Origin: an uncultured Lachnospiraceae bacterium | Lineage (GTDB): Bacteria; Bacillota; Clostridia; Lachnospirales; Lachnospiraceae | DNA: 64,000 nucleotides | Assembly: GCA_947165275.1 (NCBI GenBank) | Contig: CAMUZQ010000005.1 | Span: forward strand, 15,110 to 79,109 | Direction: 5' to 3' | Shown: piece by piece, positions 7,885-17,136 of the stretch | How the letters are laid out: every line of letters begins with the position of its first letter | Position numbering within the stretch: position 1 is the first letter of the stretch | Notes under the pieces: model-generated | Database searches by the model: none | Seen by the model: only the letters and a program-made list of their open reading frames with translations | Told to the model about the DNA's origin: nothing | Program-made: the position numbers and the translations under genes

Positions 7885-9465
7885 TTACTCCTTGTCGCTT
7901 ATTTTAATATCATCATAATTGATCAGAGACTCCAGATCGGGAAATTTAGTATCAGGATCCTCTCCCCTGGCCGGTCCGTATATCTCAAAATCAACATTCT
8001 TCTTTATCTCCCGCTCCAGGATCTCCGTAAGATCAGCCGAATTGGCCTTCAGGGATCCGGACGATATCTCGTCCTTGCAGACGATCACAAGCTTTTTCCC
8101 CTCCAGCGACGGCTTGGCTTCCCTGAGTATGCCCCTTACTATATCCTTTGAATCACTGACTATCCTGCCCCAGTTGTCACAGACCATGCGCACATCCTCA
8201 GGCAGGGCATCCGGCAGGGGAACCTTTTTTACCGGCGCAGCCGGCCTGCTTCCCTGTCCTGCAGCCGCTCCGGACACCTTTACACCCTCGCGCTCCATCC
8301 GGTCAAGCTTCCTCTCTATGACAGCCAGTCTCTGTCTCGTCGAGGCCGCATCATCCTGCATCTCCGGATGCATCAGACGCACTATGGCGATCTCTGTCAG
8401 GGTTTTTTTCTGTGAAGAATACCTTATCTCAGACGAAAGCTCGGAGAAGATCCGGATATACCGCATGATGGTCTCTGTCTCAAACCTCTTTGCCAGGACC
8501 TTCATCTGATCATAGGTATCTGAAGAAACACCGAGGATATCAGCTATATCAGCCCCTGTGGAACCATCGGCCGATATCAGCAGAAGATTTCTCAGGTATG
8601 AAATGAAATCACCTACAAACGCCTGGATCTCCCGCCCTTTCATAAAGGCGTCATCCAGGATCTCCACAGCAGACTTCAGATCAGCCGCTGCCACCGCATC
8701 CATCATGGACGCAAATACAGAGGTGTCCACCGCTCCCAGGATCTCAAGAGTCCGGTCATAGGTAAGTCTCTCTCCCAGAGTAAAAGCCATACACTGATCC
8801 AGAAGAGACAATGCATCCCTCATGGAGCCGTCCGCCTGTCTTGCGATGAAAGAAAGCGCCATGTCCTCCGCGCTGCCATCCTCCGAAGCCAGTATATTTT
8901 TCATCCGGGCGACAAGCGTGTCTGCCTTCATGCGGTGAAAATCATACCTCTGGCATCGGGAAAGGATCGTGATGGGAACCTTCCCTACCTCTGTCGTTGC
9001 CAATATGAACAATGCGTACTCCGGCGGTTCTTCCAGTGTCTTTAAAAGAGCATTGAAAGCTCCGCCGGAAAGCATATGAACCTCGTCTATTATATAGACC
9101 TTTTTTTTGCCTCTCTGGGGACTGTAGGCTATCTCCTCTATTATGGTACGGATATTGTCTACGCCATTATTTGACGCTGCATCGATCTCGATGACATTCA
9201 TCAGGGAGCCGTCCGCTATGCCTCTGCACATGACGCACTCACCGCAGGGACTTCCGTCAGGCCTTATATCCTCGCAGTTCACCGCCCTTGCAAATATCTT
9301 TGCGACGGTGGTCTTGCCTGTACCTCTGGTGCCCGTAAAAAGATAGGCGTGCGCAAGCCTGTCAGAAGTTATCTGATTCCCGAGAGCCCTTGTTATCGCA
9401 TCCTGACCGGCGACATCCGCAAAAAACTGCGGTCTGTACTTTCTGTAAAGAGATTGATAAGCCAT
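7885..9465 (-). CDS. dnaX: DNA polymerase III gamma/tau
   Basis: LYRKYRP, GTRGTGKT, C4 motif, EIDAASNNGVD, IIDEVHML and SRCQ. Confidence 0.97.
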   Translation of the reverse strand: MAYQSLYRKYRPQFFADVAGQDAITRALGNQITSDRLAHAYLFTGTRGTGKTTVAKIFARAVNCEDIRPDGSPCGECVMCRGIADGSLMNVIEIDAASNNGVDNIRTIIEEIAYSPQRGKKKVYIIDEVHMLSGGAFNALLKTLEEPPEYALFILATTEVGKVPITILSRCQRYDFHRMKADTLVARMKNILASEDGSAEDMALSFIARQADGSMRDALSLLDQCMAFTLGERLTYDRTLEILGAVDTSVFASMMDAVAAADLKSAVEILDDAFMKGREIQAFVGDFISYLRNLLLISADGSTGADIADILGVSSDTYDQMKVLAKRFETETIMRYIRIFSELSSEIRYSSQKKTLTEIAIVRLMHPEMQDDAASTRQRLAVIERKLDRMEREGVKVSGAAAGQGSRPAAPVKKVPLPDALPEDVRMVCDNWGRIVSDSKDIVRGILREAKPSLEGKKLVIVCKDEISSGSLKANSADLTEILEREIKKNVDFEIYGPARGEDPDTKFPDLESLINYDDIKISDKE

Positions 9466-9476
9466 CTGTTTCAGTA

Positions 9477-10550
9477 TCAGTCTCCGAAGGAAATGCCGAG
9501 CATCTTTGCTTCTTTTATGATAGCAGCATTGGGATCAAGGCTCTTGAGCTTGCCTGCCACCTCATCAAGAGGAACCTTGACGATCTCTCTGTTCTTGTAG
9601 CCGACCATGAACCCGTACTCACCCTTGAGTATCAGCTTGCCTGCCTCTGACCCGAGACGAGAAGCAAATACTCTGTCATAGGAATCCGGCGCTCCGCCTC
9701 TCTGGATATGTCCGGGAACCGTGACTCTGACCTCTTTGCCTGTCTTTTTCTGGATCTTCTCAGCAATCTCATAGGAAACGGAAGGATATTTCGCCTTGGC
9801 GACCTTCTCCTTATATTCCTTCTTTGAAAGCTTGGCATCCTGCTTGCTTATCGCGCCCTCAGCCACTACTATGATAGTGAACTTGGCGCCTCTCTTCTTT
9901 CTGAGCTCTATCGCATCTACGATCTTATCAATATCATAAGGTATCTCCGGAATAAGGATGATGTCGGCTCCGCCGGCCATACCGGCATTCAGCGGGAGAA
10001 ATCCGACCTTGTGTCCCATGATCTCCACAATGAACACCCTGCCGTGTGAATCTGCAGTAGTATGAATATAATCAATGGTCTGGGTTGCGATATCAACTGC
10101 ACTCTGGAAGCCGAAGGTCATATCCGTGCCCCAGAGGTCATTATCAATAGTCTTCGGAAGAGTGACTATATTAAGCCCCTCCTCACGGAGCAGATTTGCC
10201 GTCTTATGAGTTCCGTTTCCTCCGAGGATGACCAGGCAGTCAAGACGAAGCTTATAATATGAATGCTTCATTGACTCAACCTTATCCCTGCCGTCCTCAT
10301 CCGGCTCTCTGATCGTCTTAAAAGGTACTCTTGAGGTACCGAGGATCGTGCCTCCTCTGGTGAGAATGCCGGAGAAATCAGAGATATCAAGCATCCTGTA
10401 CTCGCCATAGATCAGACCCCTGTAACCGTCAAGGAATCCGTACAGCTCGATCTGCTCACCGGAATTGACCAGTGATTTGACGACCCCTCTCATAGCCGCA
10501 TTAAGTGCCTGACAGTCGCCGCCGCTAGTAAGTAACCCAATACGCTTCAT
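9477..10550 (-). CDS. pfkA: 6-phosphofructokinase
   Basis: TSGGDC, GGTILGTSR, PKTIDND, EIMG and GHIQRGG motifs. Confidence 0.93.
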   Translation of the reverse strand: MKRIGLLTSGGDCQALNAAMRGVVKSLVNSGEQIELYGFLDGYRGLIYGEYRMLDISDFSGILTRGGTILGTSRVPFKTIREPDEDGRDKVESMKHSYYKLRLDCLVILGGNGTHKTANLLREEGLNIVTLPKTIDNDLWGTDMTFGFQSAVDIATQTIDYIHTTADSHGRVFIVEIMGHKVGFLPLNAGMAGGADIILIPEIPYDIDKIVDAIELRKKRGAKFTIIVVAEGAISKQDAKLSKKEYKEKVAKAKYPSVSYEIAEKIQKKTGKEVRVTVPGHIQRGGAPDSYDRVFASRLGSEAGKLILKGEYGFMVGYKNREIVKVPLDEVAGKLKSLDPNAAIIKEAKMLGISFGD

Positions 10551-10647
10551 ATACCAACCCCCTATACTTTTAGTTATGATGTAAGGATATCCCGCATCAT
10601 TTAATTAAAGAAATACAGTGAATATCATTATATCATAATATGCACTG

Positions 10648-13560
10648 TCAAACCAGTTCACAGTCCCACATTGCAATATCGGTGTCGGCAAATACAGACT
10701 GGATCCTCTCCTGCAGCTCGGCTTTTCTGACCCCCTTTTTAAGGACCACCTGAAGGAAGCCTCCGCCGCCGGCGCCGCAGATCATCTTTCCTGCAAGAAG
10801 ATCCTCGCATGTATCAAAGATCTGATCGATCAGGGTATTGGTGCTTCCTGCATCTATAAGCTTTGAAAGCTCCCAGTGACGGTTAAGCAGCTCTGCGAAA
10901 GCATCTATATTTCCGCGCTCAAGCTCGAAACGCTGCAGGGCCGCATTTCTCTGTATCTCATTGAGGGCATATACCGTATCCGGCTCGTTTCCGATATAAC
11001 GTCCTACCACATCACGCAGCAGATTCCGCGCAAGTCTCCTCTGACCTGTATATATGAGGGTAAACCTTTCATTCAATTCTTTACGCACAGCTTCTGAAAG
11101 CTCCAGGTGTGTGACAGACAGATCCTGCTTCAGACCGGGCTTCGAGGTGATATACTTGATCCCGTCCGTAACTCCCCCTGCCTGATCCTGCCATCCGCCT
11201 CCCGTGGACATGATCTGCTCCATACAAAGCACATGAGAATACAGATCCGCCTCGTCATATTCTATGCCGAGGAATTCAAAAAGCGCTTTCACGCAGGCCG
11301 CAGCCAGTATACTGCTGGTCCCCAGACCGCTGCCCTTCGGGACACCAACGACCTCGGTATCCATGCATATCCCGCCGCCAAGGCGGGTAAGGATCGAATC
11401 CAGATCTCCCCCCTGTCCGGGGATCACCCCGCAGGCAAGGAAGGCCGCTTTCTGGAGCACATAGGGATCGTAAGGATCGCCGACTGACTGCAGCTTCCGT
11501 ATGTCATCAAATTCCCCATGTACATCCATATCCTGACTTTCAAATACGATCTTATGTTCTTCAAGTCTTTTAAGACCGACCTTCACGGGCCTTTCTCCAT
11601 TTAAGAGTATTGCCGCATTGAGCACGGTTCCGCCGTTTTCATTGCAATATGGCGGCGTATCCGACCAGCCTCCTCCGAAATTAACCCGCAGAGGCAGCTT
11701 CACCTCATGGCTGTCGAGCATGATCTTTGCTTTTTTATTTTCCTGAAGTCCCGAAAGACCGGTAGCCAGAATAGCATCCGAGAGGATATGGAAAGCCTTT
11801 GATACCTCAACCTCATCACCAAGCGCAGATCCGATATAATAATGAAACCTCATGCGCTCGCTGTATTCCGCTTCAGCTATGTGCTCATCCATCCACTCCT
11901 TTTGTATCTTTGTGAGCGGTGCGGCAAGCACACCCTTCTGCACCGGCTGTTTATCATCGATCAGGCCGCGGATCCGGTTCATGCGGACAAGCTCGGACAT
12001 TCTCTCATTCCAGGCAAGGATCGCTTCAGGGTCTGCATCAATAAAGCCGGCAGCCATGGATTTTCCCTTAAGGGACCCGACCTCTTTCCATTCTCCTGCT
12101 GTTACATGGTGGTATAACCGGAGAGCAGCCTCTACGGCCTCCTTCACGGTCTTCCTTTCCGGATATAGTCCTGCAAACCAGAGAGTATGGGGAACCCCCT
12201 CCTCCCACAGGTCTCCCGTAAGCTCCCTGCCGAAAAGCCTGCTCTCCTTCGGATTATCCTCTACCCCGTATATACGGCACACAAAACTGCCGTTACTCTG
12301 CTTTAAACCGTGCAGCACGACATGGGCAGGGATCTCCTGATCCGTCACATCTATATATGAAAGAACCGATCCCTCTCCGACAGCGGCATCATCATGGATG
12401 TAGCTGACCTCGGCGTACACCCCTTTTCCTACTCTGGCTCTCGGGTTCACGACCGAGTTATATCTCGCGGAGACTACACCGGAGCTGTTGACCACGCTTC
12501 CCCAGCCAAGCTCCTTATACTGGTCGACACCGCCGTTCATAAGTCTCAATATCTCTTTTGTTGTTCCGAAATGTATGAATTTGGAAGGCGCCAGTCGGAG
12601 GAGCTTGAGTCTGAATGGGCGGAGTGCTTCCCATAAGGCGGTCCTGCACTCTGTCAGCTCGTCACTGTATTCTCCCTCCGGTTTCTCCTTATAATATTCC
12701 TCCAGGGTTGAATCCACCGCCAGCGGATACTGAAAATCTCCATACAGTGAAAGCCTGACCCTGTCATTTACAAAGGTCCTGTACTTATTCTCGTCATTCC
12801 TTCCATCGGTGCTGATCAGCTTATAAAGTGCATTCAGCACGTCAACGCCAAAGATCAGTGCTCCCGTATCGATATCCACGTCTCCGGCGTCATTCACGGC
12901 CCCGACAGATCTCAGCATTTCCTCACTCTGCTTATGATGGAAGGACTTCACATATCCGTCCTCGCCTCGGAGGAACACTCCGTGATTCTTTCCGGTTTCC
13001 ACCGGTTCCTTGAAGCTCACGGCAGCCACTCCGTGGCCGGAATAATCTATAAGCAGCGGATTGAAAAGCAGCAGCACGTCTCCAGCAAGCAGGAACATTC
13101 CCTCCCGGATGCGTCCCGGGACTGCGGACATGGCAACAAGTATCTCATCAAATAATGTGGAGGATCTCCCGTCCGGGAGCTCATGGGGAACCGGACTGAA
13201 GAGCTTTCCCAGGGCGCTGTACTGGGGAACCCGTCTGCTGTCTCCGCCGGAATGTATCACGAGGATACGCAGTCCGTCAAAGGAGCCTTCCTTTTCCCGC
13301 AGGTATTTCAGTACGGAAAGTGTCGCTCCTCCGGAGCCGACCCTTACTCCTCCCTCGTCCGGGATCACTTCGAAAACGGTCTTTTCCGGCAGATACGGCT
13401 TCCTTGCTTCGATCTGCAGCCGGAAGCTCCTCGCCTGATGTTCATTGGATGCGGTCAGTATCACATAATCCCATACAGGAAAGGCCGGAGCTCTGAGACT
13501 TCTTTGATAATCGCTCCATGCATCCTTATATGATTGAGAAAGATATAGACTTATATTCAT
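10648..13560 (-). CDS. fkp: Bifunctional L-fucokinase / GDP-L-fucose pyrophosphorylase (Fkp-like)
   Basis: N-terminal GSGGAT and HSGGDSRR..GKLF nucleotidyltransferase motifs; C-terminal GHMP kinase (PLRVNFGGGWSDTPPY, PKGSGLGTSS, GGGWQDQ, GAGGGG); 970 aa. Confidence 0.85.
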   Translation of the reverse strand: MNISLYLSQSYKDAWSDYQRSLRAPAFPVWDYVILTASNEHQARSFRLQIEARKPYLPEKTVFEVIPDEGGVRVGSGGATLSVLKYLREKEGSFDGLRILVIHSGGDSRRVPQYSALGKLFSPVPHELPDGRSSTLFDEILVAMSAVPGRIREGMFLLAGDVLLLFNPLLIDYSGHGVAAVSFKEPVETGKNHGVFLRGEDGYVKSFHHKQSEEMLRSVGAVNDAGDVDIDTGALIFGVDVLNALYKLISTDGRNDENKYRTFVNDRVRLSLYGDFQYPLAVDSTLEEYYKEKPEGEYSDELTECRTALWEALRPFRLKLLRLAPSKFIHFGTTKEILRLMNGGVDQYKELGWGSVVNSSGVVSARYNSVVNPRARVGKGVYAEVSYIHDDAAVGEGSVLSYIDVTDQEIPAHVVLHGLKQSNGSFVCRIYGVEDNPKESRLFGRELTGDLWEEGVPHTLWFAGLYPERKTVKEAVEAALRLYHHVTAGEWKEVGSLKGKSMAAGFIDADPEAILAWNERMSELVRMNRIRGLIDDKQPVQKGVLAAPLTKIQKEWMDEHIAEAEYSERMRFHYYIGSALGDEVEVSKAFHILSDAILATGLSGLQENKKAKIMLDSHEVKLPLRVNFGGGWSDTPPYCNENGGTVLNAAILLNGERPVKVGLKRLEEHKIVFESQDMDVHGEFDDIRKLQSVGDPYDPYVLQKAAFLACGVIPGQGGDLDSILTRLGGGICMDTEVVGVPKGSGLGTSSILAAACVKALFEFLGIEYDEADLYSHVLCMEQIMSTGGGWQDQAGGVTDGIKYITSKPGLKQDLSVTHLELSEAVRKELNERFTLIYTGQRRLARNLLRDVVGRYIGNEPDTVYALNEIQRNAALQRFELERGNIDAFAELLNRHWELSKLIDAGSTNTLIDQIFDTCEDLLAGKMICGAGGGGFLQVVLKKGVRKAELQERIQSVFADTDIAMWDCELV

Positions 13561-13578
13561 GTGGCTCCTTATGATTCC

Positions 13579-14088
13579 TTATCTTATAGATGGTTTTATG
13601 CTGCTTAATTGAGGTTCTCTGCCATTCTGAAGATCATAATCTCCGTATATACGATACATATGGTGATATACCGGTTCCTGAGAGGCATATTTTCCCGCAC
13701 TGTGGATACCATAGATTTCAGTCACGCTATACGGTAAATTGCTGAGACTTTCCCTTGTAACGATCACATAATAATTATCTGTTCTGCGAATTTCATGTGC
13801 AAATTCCTCAGAGGCTGCAAATCTGTTACCTTCATCAATAAATACCAGACTTCCATGCATTCCCTTCAGCTGTTCTTTCCATGTGTTTCCGCTTAGAACT
13901 CTGCACGGACAGTTACAGCTTAGGATAATACCGGTGTCCGATCCGTTGAGTTCATATTCCTGGATCATATCCACCAGCGTTGTTTTTCCGCTGGCGCTGT
14001 CCCCTTTCAAAATCGTTATGTTTCGGTGGAATGTCTGTTCATATTGCAGATGAGCTGATCGCACCCTCAAGGATACGCTCCCACGCAT
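13579..14088 (-). CDS. Short P-loop ATPase-like protein, possibly C-terminally truncated
   Basis: Walker A GDSASGKT (aa 29-36), Walker B LVFIDE (aa 81-86); start overlaps the stop of the DUF4869-like gene by 1 nt. Confidence 0.7.
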   Translation of the reverse strand: MRGSVSLRVRSAHLQYEQTFHRNITILKGDSASGKTTLVDMIQEYELNGSDTGIILSCNCPCRVLSGNTWKEQLKGMHGSLVFIDEGNRFAASEEFAHEIRRTDNYYVIVTRESLSNLPYSVTEIYGIHSAGKYASQEPVYHHMYRIYGDYDLQNGREPQLSSIKPSIR

Positions 14089-14525
14089 CAGACATACCTC
14101 CCGGCAACAGGGATAAGCTCATCCATGTTATGAACTATATCTCCCGTGTTCATTATCATTATTTCAAAATCGTCCGGTCCAAAATCCATCAGATGGCGAA
14201 GATTTACCGTAATATCCCTTTCCCTGGAAATGCGCAGCAGCCATCCGGCACAATTATCCCCGCAGTTTGAAGCATTGAATATCCTGTCCTGCACCTTGTC
14301 TATCAGGATCAAAGTTTTCAGTCCGCCCGATAATGTAACCGGAGCGATCACGCCTAAAACAGGACTGTCTATTGCGCCGTTTCCCAATACACTTGAATTG
14401 TCTATATCCTTTACCATATGAATAATATCAGGATCCTTAAACCATTCCGGGTTGTAGTTAAATTTAAAATACACTGATGTGTTATAAATGGCATCTTCCT
14501 TTTCGCCATAATAAATCTTCAGCAT
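14088..14525 (-). CDS. DUF4869-like protein with an ABC-signature-like motif
   Basis: IYNTSVYF, IDSPVLGVI, LSGGLKTLILI and NASNCGDNC; family recognised from memory. Confidence 0.7.
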   Translation of the reverse strand: MLKIYYGEKEDAIYNTSVYFKFNYNPEWFKDPDIIHMVKDIDNSSVLGNGAIDSPVLGVIAPVTLSGGLKTLILIDKVQDRIFNASNCGDNCAGWLLRISRERDITVNLRHLMDFGPDDFEIMIMNTGDIVHNMDELIPVAGRYV

Positions 14526-14564
14526 ACATCCATCCTTTCACACCTGCGGAGTTCTGTCTTTAAC

Positions 14565-14593
14565 ATGATACACCCCGAAAATGGCATTTTCAA
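14565..14593 (-). promoter_or_regulatory. Predicted sigma-A promoter for DUF4869-like/ATPase/fkp
   Basis: TTGAAA-17 bp-TATCAT on the minus strand, about 40 bp upstream of the ATG at 14525. Confidence 0.55.
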
Positions 14594-14679
14594 TCCGGTC
14601 AGGGGAGGGGGTCAGGGGGCGTAGCTTTGTAATGTTTGAATTGATCTCGCATATGATATAAAATTAAGAAATATCTCAT

Positions 14680-14843
14680 TCTAGTACACCGAATAATAAA
14701 TTTCTGGTACATTCACGCAGGATGATTGTTCATATGCAATGAAGCCGAATGAGGCAATGCGGGCATTGCCGATTGAGGATGAAGCAGCATATGGGCAATC
14801 AGACAAGCGAATGTGCCAGTTAATTATTATTCGGTGTACTAGA
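14680..14843. mobile_element. 164-bp palindromic MITE-like element
   Basis: Perfect 20-bp terminal inverted repeat TCTAGTACACCGAATAATAA (14680-14699 / 14824-14843); nested imperfect inner repeats; central GGCAATGC-GG-GCATTGCC hairpin; no ORF. Confidence 0.7.
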
Positions 14844-14890
14844 GAGGTTTTTATTCTTACAGGAAGTCGGATACCATCATATTCTTGCTA

Positions 14891-15994
14891 TTATTTGTCT
14901 TTTTTCCTATAGATAGAACCATCCATATCAAATTCAAGTGTTCCATTGTTGTAATAATACTCAACATTTCCATAAACATAAGAAACCCTTACCGTATTAT
15001 TTGAATATGTATAAGTTAAGGGTATCACATTATCACCTTGATGGATCTCCCCGACGCCACCCTCATCGAACTGGATATAGTAGTCAGAGTAATCCGTGTA
15101 ATCTGGATACCATTTTCCTATTATCCCTGTATCAGTTTGGGGTTCTTCATCTTCAAAGTCTGATTCCGCCACATCCTTTTCGGTTTCCGGCATCTCTATG
15201 ATAACCACGTCTTTTGCATCGTGCGACTCAAAATCAGATTCACCAGTATTACCCTTACACTCTTCAGCTATTTCGGAATAATAATCCTTTAATACTGATA
15301 AATCATCAGCCTCACACGAAAAATCCAATAATATCGTGGTAAGTGTAGCACTCTCATCACTATTTCCGCTTGAAAATCCAGCTTCATCCAGCTCACACTT
15401 TACAACATCCATAGAGATATTGGATCCATCAATGTCTATCTTTATTGTCTTTGGCATGTGATCAGTGTAATCGATAGGAAATCCGTCCGTTGCTTTTTCA
15501 GTCGAATCAAAGACTTCTGAGGCATAAACAAAGGCCTTAACAACCGAGTCCAGCTGATCTCGCATATTATCATTATAAATGCCTACATCCAGTTTTCTGA
15601 TATCATCGATACACTCTTCTGTTAAGGTAAGCTCTTCATCATCAACGCTTACTTTGGGTATACTGTTGCTGTATAGATGATCGTATGTAAGTGGACCACT
15701 GTCTGAATATATACCCAATCCTTTATATTTCATTACAGATACATCTCCTACGATTGAATTGGTAATATCAGTCTCATCGGGACTAAAAGAATACTCGAAT
15801 ACGATACTTATAGAATCCTTTTCTTTTTCCTCCGGAATCTCAATAACATCGTCTTCAGCAGCATTATCAGATGCACTGAAAAGGCTTTCTTCTATTAGAG
15901 CAGTTTCGGTTTCTGCTTCTGGAACATCTGATTTACCGCATCCCAAAACAACTGAAATAACTGTGATCCCAATAATAATCCAGAGTCTCTTCAT
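14891..15994 (-). CDS. Acidic lipoprotein of unknown function
   Basis: Signal peptide with lipobox VLGC; very Asp/Glu-rich; small C-terminal beta domain (GKWY...FDEGG); visibly AT-richer than the flanks. Confidence 0.7.
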   Translation of the reverse strand: MKRLWIIIGITVISVVLGCGKSDVPEAETETALIEESLFSASDNAAEDDVIEIPEEKEKDSISIVFEYSFSPDETDITNSIVGDVSVMKYKGLGIYSDSGPLTYDHLYSNSIPKVSVDDEELTLTEECIDDIRKLDVGIYNDNMRDQLDSVVKAFVYASEVFDSTEKATDGFPIDYTDHMPKTIKIDIDGSNISMDVVKCELDEAGFSSGNSDESATLTTILLDFSCEADDLSVLKDYYSEIAEECKGNTGESDFESHDAKDVVIIEMPETEKDVAESDFEDEEPQTDTGIIGKWYPDYTDYSDYYIQFDEGGVGEIHQGDNVIPLTYTYSNNTVRVSYVYGNVEYYYNNGTLEFDMDGSIYRKKDK

Positions 15995-16100
15995 AATTAT
16001 TCTCCACCTTTATAGCAATAATACATCTTACAAGATATAAGAATTACAATTACGTTATATCATCTTTTGTCTGGATTGCTTTATCCTTAAGATCGACTGC

Positions 16101-16316
16101 CTATCTCTTTATAGCAGTTCCGGCTATATCGGCAGCATCTTTCATCAGGATGCCCTCTGGGCGGTTCTCGGCAAATTCCTTTTTCTCCAGCGGAGGGTCT
16201 TCGGAGAGCATCCGCGCCAGCGTGTACCAGGCAATATCGAACTGTAAACTCCGCATCACGGGCAAGTAATGTTGCATCAATGGAGGCAATGTCAAACTCT
16301 TTGTCATTGAGAGCAC
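16101..16316 (-). CDS. Small hypothetical ORF or gene remnant
   Basis: 71-codon GTG-start ORF with no clear RBS; the frame stays open 16 codons past the TAG. Confidence 0.25.
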   Translation of the reverse strand: MLSMTKSLTLPPLMQHYLPVMRSLQFDIAWYTLARMLSEDPPLEKKEFAENRPEGILMKDAADIAGTAIKR

Positions 16317-16359
16317 GATACAGATAATCGACCTGATATGTTTACCTGGAGCTATGGGT

Positions 16360-17136
16360 CTACTTAAGAGAGTATGTGCAGAGTTTGCTGCTGTGATGGT
16401 AGCGGACGTCGTCGGCTATGATCCCGTAGGTCTTTCCCATTGATATAGTTTTCATCGGTATGCCGTTTACCTCATAACGCCTGGAAGCGCCGGCTTTAAT
16501 GAAGTCCTCTTCATAGGGATAGATGGTTACAAATATATCGGCACTTAAGTCACGCACATGCATACAGTATGTGCGTGTGCTTTTATTTCCGTCCTCGTCT
16601 ATATAATCAGCAGTGAAATTTTTAAGATAGCGATAGGGCACGCCTATCATCTCTTCGACATAATGAACAAAGGTGTAGCTGTGCTGGCACTCCACATCTA
16701 TAAATACATTTTTTGTATCATGTTCCCTGCACCAGGAAAACGGGCTGTGAGAGCCGAATGAGGATCTGTTGTCCATCGCCACAAGCTCCTCTGTCCCGCT
16801 GCCCCATACGGCAAAGGAATAGATAGGGTGTCTGGTCCTCTTAAAATCATCTCTTTTAAGCACGACCTTTCCTATGGAGCCTGTCTGTGACGGAGATCTC
16901 CGGATATCGAAGGTCTTTCCCTTACAGAAATCCCAGTTGAAAACAGGGATCAGGATGGTTCCCTCAGGGCCTATGATATCCTGCACGGAATCAATGAGCA
17001 CGTTTAAGTCCGTATCATCCCCGTTTTCTATACAGGTATAAAGAAGCTGCTTCACATCAGATGCGATCCAGACCGAATCTCCCCTCTCCAGTCCGAAATA
17101 CTGCGGTATGTCTTTGAGCTTTACATATCCATCCAT
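16360..17136 (-). CDS. AAC(3)/YokD-family N-acetyltransferase
   Basis: GTILIPVFNWDF, RTRHPIYSFAVWG, FGSHSPF and SYTFVHYVEE motifs. Confidence 0.75.
   Translation of the reverse strand: MDGYVKLKDIPQYFGLERGDSVWIASDVKQLLYTCIENGDDTDLNVLIDSVQDIIGPEGTILIPVFNWDFCKGKTFDIRRSPSQTGSIGKVVLKRDDFKRTRHPIYSFAVWGSGTEELVAMDNRSSFGSHSPFSWCREHDTKNVFIDVECQHSYTFVHYVEEMIGVPYRYLKNFTADYIDEDGNKSTRTYCMHVRDLSADIFVTIYPYEEDFIKAGASRRYEVNGIPMKTISMGKTYGIIADDVRYHHSSKLCTYSLK

Follow-up and report, generated by a model that had tools for sequence, protein, structure and literature searches.

What do two overlapping genes encode when one product carries an ATP-binding cassette (ABC) signature-like motif and no P-loop, and the other a P-loop and a Walker B motif within only 169 amino acids? 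Such a pair lies on the minus strand of the window analysed here, a 64,000-nucleotide stretch of contig CAMUZQ010000005.1 (positions 15,110 to 79,109; GenBank assembly GCA_947165275.1) from an uncultured Lachnospiraceae bacterium. An earlier interpretation, made without database searches (the sequence-only reading), had put forward the products, a DUF4869-like protein and a short ATPase, as a candidate split, single-site ABC ATPase. The split-ABC idea has gained support from the fold of DUF4869, the invariance of two of its signature residues (S66 and G68), the adjacency of the genes, their correlated divergence, and their natural fusions. The short ATPase did not survive as a protein in its own right. 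We conclude that the locus is the decayed remains of a two-gene module, conserved and horizontally mobile, whose probable effector half is lost here; the explanation as a whole, mechanism included, is probable (roughly 0.6).

The gene pair and the truncation of its second gene

Listing and translation of the open reading frames (ORFs) place the first gene at 14525..14088 (145 amino acids) and the second at 14088..13579 (169 amino acids), both on the minus strand. The stop codon of the first and the start codon of the second share one base (TGATG), an overlap that bears out the translational coupling proposed earlier. A Shine-Dalgarno sequence, GGGAGG, lies 8 nucleotides (nt) ahead of the ATG of the second ORF, and GAAAGGA precedes the start of the first. 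The motifs that had been named can be read directly from the translations: LSGG (residues 65 to 68; minus-strand codons 14322..14333), RIFNASNCGDN (residues 81 to 91), and ITVNLRH (residues 105 to 111) in the 145-residue protein, and Walker A GDSASGKT (residues 29 to 36; minus-strand codons 13981..14004) and Walker B VFIDE with its catalytic Glu (residues 82 to 86; minus-strand codons 13831..13845) in the 169-residue protein. In the latter, K35 and D85 are 50 residues apart, and VLSGNTW (residues 63 to 69) is what had been described as a degenerate LSGN.

The first gene (14088..14525) is intact, and its product is a bona fide, full-length member of Pfam family DUF4869 (PF16163), matching profile positions 1 to 127 of 128 at E=2.4e-52 and 176.6 bits against a cut-off of 28.9. 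The label "DUF4869-like" was thus too cautious. Homologues number more than 1518, nearly all of them 145 amino acids long.

The second gene (13579..14088) is a fragment. On other contigs, DUF4869 is followed, with a similar overlap, by a protein of ~325 amino acids without a Pfam domain (here called the partner), whose family comprises 6129 proteins, mostly of 316 to 340 amino acids. The 169-residue protein is 68% identical over 158 amino acids to residues 1 to 157 of one such partner (P0121; 331 amino acids) and then diverges. A hidden Markov model (HMM) of the partner's N-terminal ATPase domain matches the locus over positions 1 to 152 of 154 (E=2.1e-79), starting 3 nt after DUF4869, and the HMM of the partner's C-terminal domain finds no match there. 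At the nucleotide level, blastn similarity to four intact modules (L113-L116) runs at 72 to 74% identity from the start of DUF4869 and ends at window positions 13627-13640 (codon ~150-154). The last ~17 codons and the stop, within 13579..13640 on the minus strand, are unrelated to partner sequence and mark the deletion junction. The window copy therefore encodes the family's N-terminal P-loop domain directly downstream of DUF4869, and lacks the C-terminal domain of ~170 amino acids with its EDSNSGY, ADGAAFG, LPESFEW, and SWE motifs. We also considered whether this domain is encoded elsewhere in the same genome and rejected the idea, as the best match there has E=2.09.

That the 169-residue gene is a partner whose C-terminal domain was deleted is, in our view, nearly certain. 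The sequence-only reading had alluded to full-length homologous pairs and did not call this ORF truncated; the protein's own Pfam and PADLOC matches are all below threshold (AAA_14, AAA_29, and AAA_23; the N-termini of LmuB, PtuA, and AriA). The deletion fused partner codon ~152 to sequence immediately ahead of fkp, the next gene. A conspecific contig (L029), 99.1% identical over window positions 9088-14638, carries the same 169-residue ORF beside fkp, and the closest relatives, [Clostridium] aminophilum KH1P1, a Ruminococcus metagenome-assembled genome (MAG), and Lachnospiraceae MAGs, have intact modules. The loss is specific to this lineage and common to the conspecific strain. A sister species of the same genus has fkp and no pair. 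As only the putative ATP-switch half survives in the window, the locus is most likely without effector activity and most likely inert. It should be regarded as a remnant and not be counted as a working defence system.

Architecture of the intact module

The AlphaFold2 model of the window's DUF4869 protein is confident (pLDDT 94.9, pTM 0.89). When it was compared with the Protein Data Bank (PDB) by Foldseek, ~45 of the top 50 matches were ABC nucleotide-binding domains (NBDs), among them those of YydI, IrtAB, MsbA, ABCG2, CFTR NBD1, EcfA-A', SMC heads, PtuA of Septu, and AriA of PARIS (8ux9_B). Individually these matches are weak (E from 1.4e-3 to 0.18, TMq from 0.28 to 0.44), but jointly they point to one superfamily, that of the ABC proteins, in keeping with the predicted ABC fold. 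In the model, LSGG lies at the start of a helix (residues 67 to 77), followed by a strand at the Walker-B position (82 to 84), a second helix (90 to 102), and a strand at the H-loop position (105 to 109), an order of elements equal to that of the C-terminal half of an ABC NBD. Among 57 aligned members, S66 and G68 are invariant and G67 varies; conservation extends to C88, G89, and N91, which occupy the D-loop position. When nucleotide is bound to one subunit of a canonical ABC ATPase, its gamma-phosphate is contacted by the signature Ser and second Gly of the other subunit. DUF4869 contains no P-loop of the form GxxxxGK[ST], and its Walker-B position reads FNAS, with no acidic residue.

The model of an intact partner is of similar quality (pLDDT 91.5, pTM 0.88). 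Residues 1 to 150 form, in order, a two-strand hairpin, the P-loop strand, helix 1, a short hairpin, a short helix, the Walker B strand, and further strands, with strands 5-10 and 14-20 preceding strand 24-27 and its P-loop. As modelled, this N-terminal domain would be a minimal ABC-like core without the helical subdomain. It has the Walker A motif, the Walker B motif with catalytic Glu, and the hairpin ahead of the P-loop that are expected of an ABC ATPase, and G29, G34, K35, T36, D85, and E86 are invariant in 62 partners. It has neither the LSGGQ signature nor the helical subdomain, the whole interval from K35 to D85 being 50 residues; at the signature position, G67 alone is conserved in the 62 partners and a Ser is not. 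Sequence profiles are less informative: AAA_23 and AAA_29 match the domain in 59 of the 62, below their cut-offs, and none of ABC_tran, SMC_N, and AAA_21 reaches its cut-off. The PADLOC matches of the domain are to the N-termini of LmuB, PtuA, AriA, and GajA.

It could be objected that the ABC assignment is over-interpreted, the likeness of DUF4869 being generic to alpha/beta proteins, the P-loop domain being AAA- or STAND-like, and the two proteins cooperating without a shared ATP site. All the Foldseek E values lie above 0.001 and no TM score exceeds 0.44, Pfam AAA_14, AAA_22, and nSTAND3 match with similar weakness, and no sequence profile links DUF4869 to any ABC family. We nevertheless consider this very unlikely. 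Chance does not explain why ~45 of the top 50 fold matches of DUF4869 fall in one superfamily, and the succession in its model of signature, helix, Walker-B-position strand, helix, and H-loop-position strand is the ABC order. On the partner's side, the two families that match 59 of 62 members are SMC/RecF-type N-terminal families, and the two-strand hairpin before the P-loop strand is confined to the ABC clade according to the HEC paper, which cites Krishnan 2020 for this (bioRxiv 10.1101/2024.01.29.577857).

The partner's C-terminal domain (residues ~158-331) is modelled as four strand-helix units followed by helices. Its invariant acidic residues are E165/D166 after strand 1, D211 (in ADGAAFG) after strand 3, and E238/E241 (in LPESFEW) after strand 4, a layout and spacing that, in the model, resemble those of Toprim and DUF4435 domains. 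The top whole-chain Foldseek match of the partner is the OLD protein of Thermus scotoductus (6p74; E=1.9e-3, TMq 0.18); further matches include MutS (probability 0.98), the effectors of retrons Eco8 and Ec78, and the Toprim protein 1t6t. When the PDB was searched by sequence, with a single protein and with profiles of both families, nothing meaningful was returned. The PHROGs contain no family for either protein, and Foldseek comparison of the partner model with the BFVD viral structures gave generic P-loop matches only. Several partners (e.g., P0337, P0349, P0363, P0438, and P0440) are labelled "translation initiation factor 2" by NCBI, a mis-annotation for which sequence and model give no support. 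Two partners are of unusual build: P0274 (446 amino acids) has an internal duplication of residues ~68-195, and in P0130 (509 amino acids) the ATPase domain and the start of the C-terminal domain are fused to ~300 residues of unrelated sequence.

Distribution, decay, and genomic neighbourhoods

Of 401 species genomes from the same family, 89 (22%) contain DUF4869, a single genome having as many as four copies; in a wider-order sample it is present in 18 of 301 genomes, and 16 of these 18 belong to this family. What lies downstream of intact DUF4869 genes was classified with HMMs of the partner's two domains, a frameshifted or internally deleted partner being scored as broken. The 76 loci from family and order genomes comprise 38 intact partners, 1 full ORF with a divergent C-terminal domain, 20 broken partners, 5 ATPase-only forms (including the window), and 12 without a partner. 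In a cross-phylum sample of named genomes (Lachnospiraceae, Oscillospiraceae, Eubacteriaceae, Coriobacteriaceae, Atopobiaceae, and Bacteroidota), the corresponding numbers for 34 loci are 24, 0, 3, 6, and 1. A partner or its remnant is therefore directly downstream of DUF4869 at 64/76 and 33/34 loci, respectively. Of the 20 broken loci, two in fact belong to a three-gene variant, and some of the 12 loci scored as lacking a partner have one upstream instead.

The pair also appears to evolve as a unit. Pairwise divergence of DUF4869 correlates with that of the ATPase domain (Mantel r=0.79, p=0.001) as closely as the partner's own two domains correlate with each other (r likewise 0.79). Uninterrupted fusions exist in both orders: DUF4869-partner fusions in P0418 (463 amino acids) and P0420 (490 amino acids), and ATPase-DUF4869 fusions without the C-terminal domain in three lineages with 41 to 69% mutual identity (L095/P0392, P0394, and P0413). 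The sequence-only reading would have been undermined by independent distribution of the two genes; given their adjacency, correlated divergence, and fusions, they are not independent. None of the contrary outcomes named in that reading was seen in the checks that could be made. In the three-gene variant, a distant one (L024:1450-2972 and L025:129-1651), a DUF4869-like gene (150 amino acids) and an ATPase-only gene (146 to 151 amino acids) are accompanied by a third gene of 225 amino acids, the product of which is collinear with the partner's C-terminal domain (hhalign E=0.0065).

Several loci show further arrangements. An ATPase-DUF4869 fusion ORF with both domains complete lies at L095:2746-3675 on the minus strand, and the same form is seen in P0392, P0393, P0394, and P0413. 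At L097, a full partner gene precedes DUF4869 in reverse order, and at L096 an ATPase-only ORF overlaps the DUF4869 ORF that follows it. A lone DUF4869 gene is found ~1.1 kb upstream of a complete pair at L035 (G431:C4:72218-75696), and [Clostridium] aminophilum KH1P1 (L116) has two complete pairs within 5.4 kb.

Could the short form at this locus be a working variant, in which DUF4869 and the ATPase domain serve as an ATP-dependent switch, regulator, or decoy? Short forms do recur (5/76 and 6/34 loci), both window ORFs are intact with good ribosome-binding sites and are found again in the conspecific strain, fusions without the C-terminal domain exist in three lineages that share only 41 to 69% identity, and in the three-gene variant the ATPase domain is a protein of its own. 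However, in a tree of 82 ATPase domains, the 12 short copies require 11 changes, for at least 9 of which well-supported branches leave no alternative, and the window copy sits among intact copies. Scattered in this way, the short copies represent independent losses, and we reject a separate functional clade of short forms. Their tails are mutually unrelated and look like read-through of junctions, broken copies with frameshifts or internal deletions are equally common, and the three-gene variant still encodes the C-terminal domain next door, whereas the window genome has none. We therefore regard a working short form as quite unlikely. The damage seen in representative truncated relatives consists of frameshifts, in-frame internal deletions through which the acidic core is lost, and chimeric tails.

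Of the loci with an intact DUF4869 gene, ~40% have a damaged partner or none, a figure inflated by the finding of loci through DUF4869 (an ascertainment effect). Such decay fits a costly effector. It would also suit an addiction pair resembling a toxin-antitoxin system, in which DUF4869 is an antitoxin that caps an ATPase-nuclease toxin without completing its ATP site, and in which the window has kept the antitoxin after the toxin was disarmed. DUF4869 heads the operon, is translationally coupled to the partner, has diverged least (mean divergence 0.47 vs 0.53 and 0.58 for the partner's domains), and stays intact while the partner decays. In many cases the pair stands alone as a two-gene insert in a housekeeping operon, such as rapZ-[pair]-whiA. 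The related single-chain protein HEC-04 was toxic on induction (bioRxiv 10.1101/2024.01.29.577857). Against this, the ABC-like fold and the invariance of Ser and Gly in the signature favour a role in the ATP site over that of a simple plug. The fusion of a toxin to a labile antitoxin would be odd, and the asymmetry of decay is exaggerated by how the loci were found. We consider a pure capping role unlikely, although it overlaps with a split ATP site, as a single contact could both cap the partner and complete the site.

The module is patchily distributed, being found in 22% of the family's species genomes and absent from the sister species. Near-identical copies occur in Collinsella and Clostridiaceae, and Coriobacteriia copies nest inside Lachnospiraceae clades; as judged from these sequences, the copies show transfer across phyla. 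The pair is also present on three large plasmids or chromids. We considered a phage origin, as five partner records are named "Bacteriophage sp.", and rejected it: these are unverified viral-metagenome scaffolds, and the one inspected (L148; MT835885.1, "UNVERIFIED: Bacteriophage sp.") is bacterial chromosome, with hprK, a PHP-domain gene, a ROK kinase gene, murB, rapZ, the pair, whiA, dnaE, pfk, and proC. The pair is there inserted between rapZ and whiA, a slot presumably occupied by yvcK in Bacillus.

The neighbourhoods of the pair are diverse. Some loci are type I restriction-modification or abortive-infection (Abi) islands, in which copies lie between hsdM and hsdR, beside AIPR and integrase genes, and one copy has SNF2 and PDDEXK_9 genes as neighbours. 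Elsewhere the pair is inserted on its own among housekeeping genes, as in Butyrivibrio fibrisolvens and Roseburia hominis. The pair is repeatedly seen beside sugar-nucleotide or capsule genes: fkp in the window, a UDP-galactopyranose mutase gene in Roseburia hominis (L032:11052-12164), and a Wzz/CpsB/LytR capsule locus that encloses one copy (L104:1-16981). Glycan loci are hotspots for variable inserts, and these neighbourhoods may reflect nothing more.

In the window, fkp (10648-13560) encodes a bifunctional fucokinase/GDP-fucose pyrophosphorylase and starts 18 bp downstream of the 169-residue ORF. A scan of the window found no terminator-like site between the pair and fkp, and read-through into fkp is therefore possible. 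A housekeeping role in cell-envelope sugar metabolism might be suggested on these grounds and from the copies beside the mutase gene and inside the capsule locus. We hold it to be highly improbable. Most neighbourhoods have nothing to do with sugars (restriction-modification islands, aroA, acetyltransferases, and rapZ/whiA), the sister species carries fkp but no pair, the module is patchily distributed and has crossed phyla, and the glycan loci are explicable as general insertion hotspots.

Upstream of the pair, the sequence-only reading had assigned it a promoter of its own. A sigma-70-like candidate, TTGAAA-17-TATCAT, is indeed present on the minus strand (14593..14565), ~40 bp 5' of the DUF4869 start, and agrees with the consensus at 10 of 12 positions; the claim stands as a consensus match only. 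The candidate lies within a 113-bp upstream region that is 99% identical in the conspecific contig, beyond which (14638..14639) synteny with the window breaks. The adjoining segment (14639-17136) is a strain-variable patch wedged against the ATP synthase epsilon gene. It holds a low-GC ORF of 367 amino acids without a Pfam match (14891..15994, minus strand) and an aminoglycoside 3-N-acetyltransferase (AAC(3))-family gene (16360..17136; PF02522, E=2e-27), in place of which the conspecific contig has DUF1351, UvrD/PDDEXK helicase-nuclease, and RNase_T genes. The GC content of the 14-16 kb stretch of the window is low, at 0.39 to 0.41 vs about 0.49 elsewhere.

Proposed mechanism and comparison with known systems

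We propose that, in the intact module, DUF4869 is a degenerate ABC NBD that has kept the signature, the helix that follows it, and strands equivalent to those of Walker B and the H-loop, and that has no P-loop and no catalytic acid. The N-terminal domain of the partner would be a minimal ABC-type ATPase that has both Walker motifs and the catalytic Glu but neither a helical subdomain nor a signature Ser that is conserved. Together they would form an asymmetric heterodimer closed around one ATP in a single composite site. The state of the nucleotide would in turn govern the Rossmann-like acidic domain at the partner's C-terminus, probably a metal-dependent nuclease with a fold resembling Toprim. 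The module would act in genetic conflict, either as phage defence of the abortive-infection type or as an addiction module. We slightly favour the putative heterodimer over its alternatives, and similarly lean, if only by a little, toward a Toprim-like nuclease for the C-terminal domain. A role in conflict is probable by inference, and the full mechanistic reading is probable at best. More tentatively, and at rather less than even odds, this may be a new ABC-based conflict architecture: an obligate heterodimer with a single ATP site, to which one subunit brings only the signature and the other, fused to a Toprim-like effector, only the P-loop. Repeated independent loss of the effector, as in the window, would then reflect its cost to the host.

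Several observations weigh against this proposal. The invariant Gly at the partner's own signature position would allow a partner homodimer, and hhalign detects no homology or paralogy between DUF4869 and the ATPase domain (E=0.19). Neither protein has a fold match at E<=0.001, and the TM scores of the two-domain partner are only 0.18 to 0.28. The C-terminal domain has a single Asp where Toprim has DxD, it finds no sequence match in Pfam, PADLOC, PHROG, or PDB, and its hhalign alignment with three DUF4435 proteins from relatives is collinear without being significant (E=0.075). Many loci lie in housekeeping or glycan-synthesis surroundings without defence genes, and the frequency of partner decay is overstated, as explained above. 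Our literature search found no paper that mentions DUF4869 or PF16163.

Among known systems, the OLD family (P2 Old, the Class 1 protein TsOLD [6p74], the Class 2 protein GajA, and the retron Eco8 effector) is similar in having an N-terminal ABC-type ATPase followed on one chain by a C-terminal metal-binding Rossmann-like (Toprim) domain, and in its conflict-system lifestyle. TsOLD is the best PDB fold match of the intact partner, though a weak and merely suggestive one, and the Eco8 effector is also among its matches. However, the partner is much shorter (~325 amino acids vs 500 to 700), has no helical/dimerisation insert and no conserved signature Ser, and carries a single Asp (ADGAA) rather than the DxD of OLD Toprim domains. 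A separate 145-residue protein appears to supply the signature, and OLD proteins have no such subunit. The intact partner matches no OLD, GajA, or Toprim model of Pfam or PADLOC beyond the P-loop and so falls outside the family; the window copy lacks the relevant domain altogether.

PARIS (AriA with AriB, a DUF4435/Toprim protein) and AbiL-type pairs are likewise two-gene systems of an ATPase and a Toprim-like protein. AriA is among the fold matches of DUF4869 (8ux9_B), and the motif order of the partner's C-terminal domain parallels that of DUF4435, in which strand 1 is followed by an acidic residue, strand 3 by Asp, and strand 4 by Glu. The division of labour differs: PARIS separates a complete ATPase from a nuclease, whereas the DUF4869 pair is split inside the ATPase, with the nuclease-like domain fused to the P-loop half. 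These systems place a DUF4435 gene beside an AAA_21-type ATPase of ~450 amino acids or more, and the window's own genome has no PF14491 match; the PADLOC AriA matches of the partners cover the N-terminal P-loop only. Nor is the pair a Gabija or Septu system, as the GajA and PtuA matches are weak and confined to the N-terminus, and no helicase or HNH gene adjoins the pair, either in the window or at those related loci that were inspected. Neither protein has a model in PADLOC or matches any of its systems beyond generic P-loop matches.

HEC-04 is similar as a compact ATPase-TOPRIM fusion embedded in other defence loci, just as some DUF4869 pairs lie between hsdM and hsdR. It is a single-chain ABC ATPase-TOPRIM protein embedded in Hma, and both Walker A and metal-site residues are needed for its defence activity (bioRxiv 10.1101/2024.01.29.577857). 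HEC-04 differs in being one protein with a complete ABC ATPase and no DUF4869-like subunit, and PADLOC assigns none of the 62 partners to it, matching HEC-02A only, and weakly. Asymmetric ABC heterodimers such as EcfA-A' and CFTR NBD1/NBD2 offer a precedent of another kind, as they combine two non-identical NBDs with one catalytically competent composite site; EcfA-A' and CFTR NBD1 are among the fold matches of DUF4869. Both of their subunits are complete NBDs with P-loops, whereas DUF4869 and the partner would each contribute about half of what one site requires.

If our proposal is correct, the pair would be the smallest known ABC-type ATP switch, and a natural ABC dimer reduced to one composite site that is split over two polypeptides. 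It would then help to explain how the ATPases of OLD-, PARIS-, and Gabija-type systems gate their nucleases. Nor is it rare, as it is very common among gut bacteria, is well represented in this family, and also occurs in Oscillospiraceae, Coriobacteriia, and Bacteroidota. We conclude that the module is an undescribed variant of the theme of an ABC ATPase plus a nuclease, and that, by analogy, its intact form would work most like OLD, PARIS/AbiL, and HEC-04, in each of which an ABC-type ATPase controls a Toprim-type nuclease.

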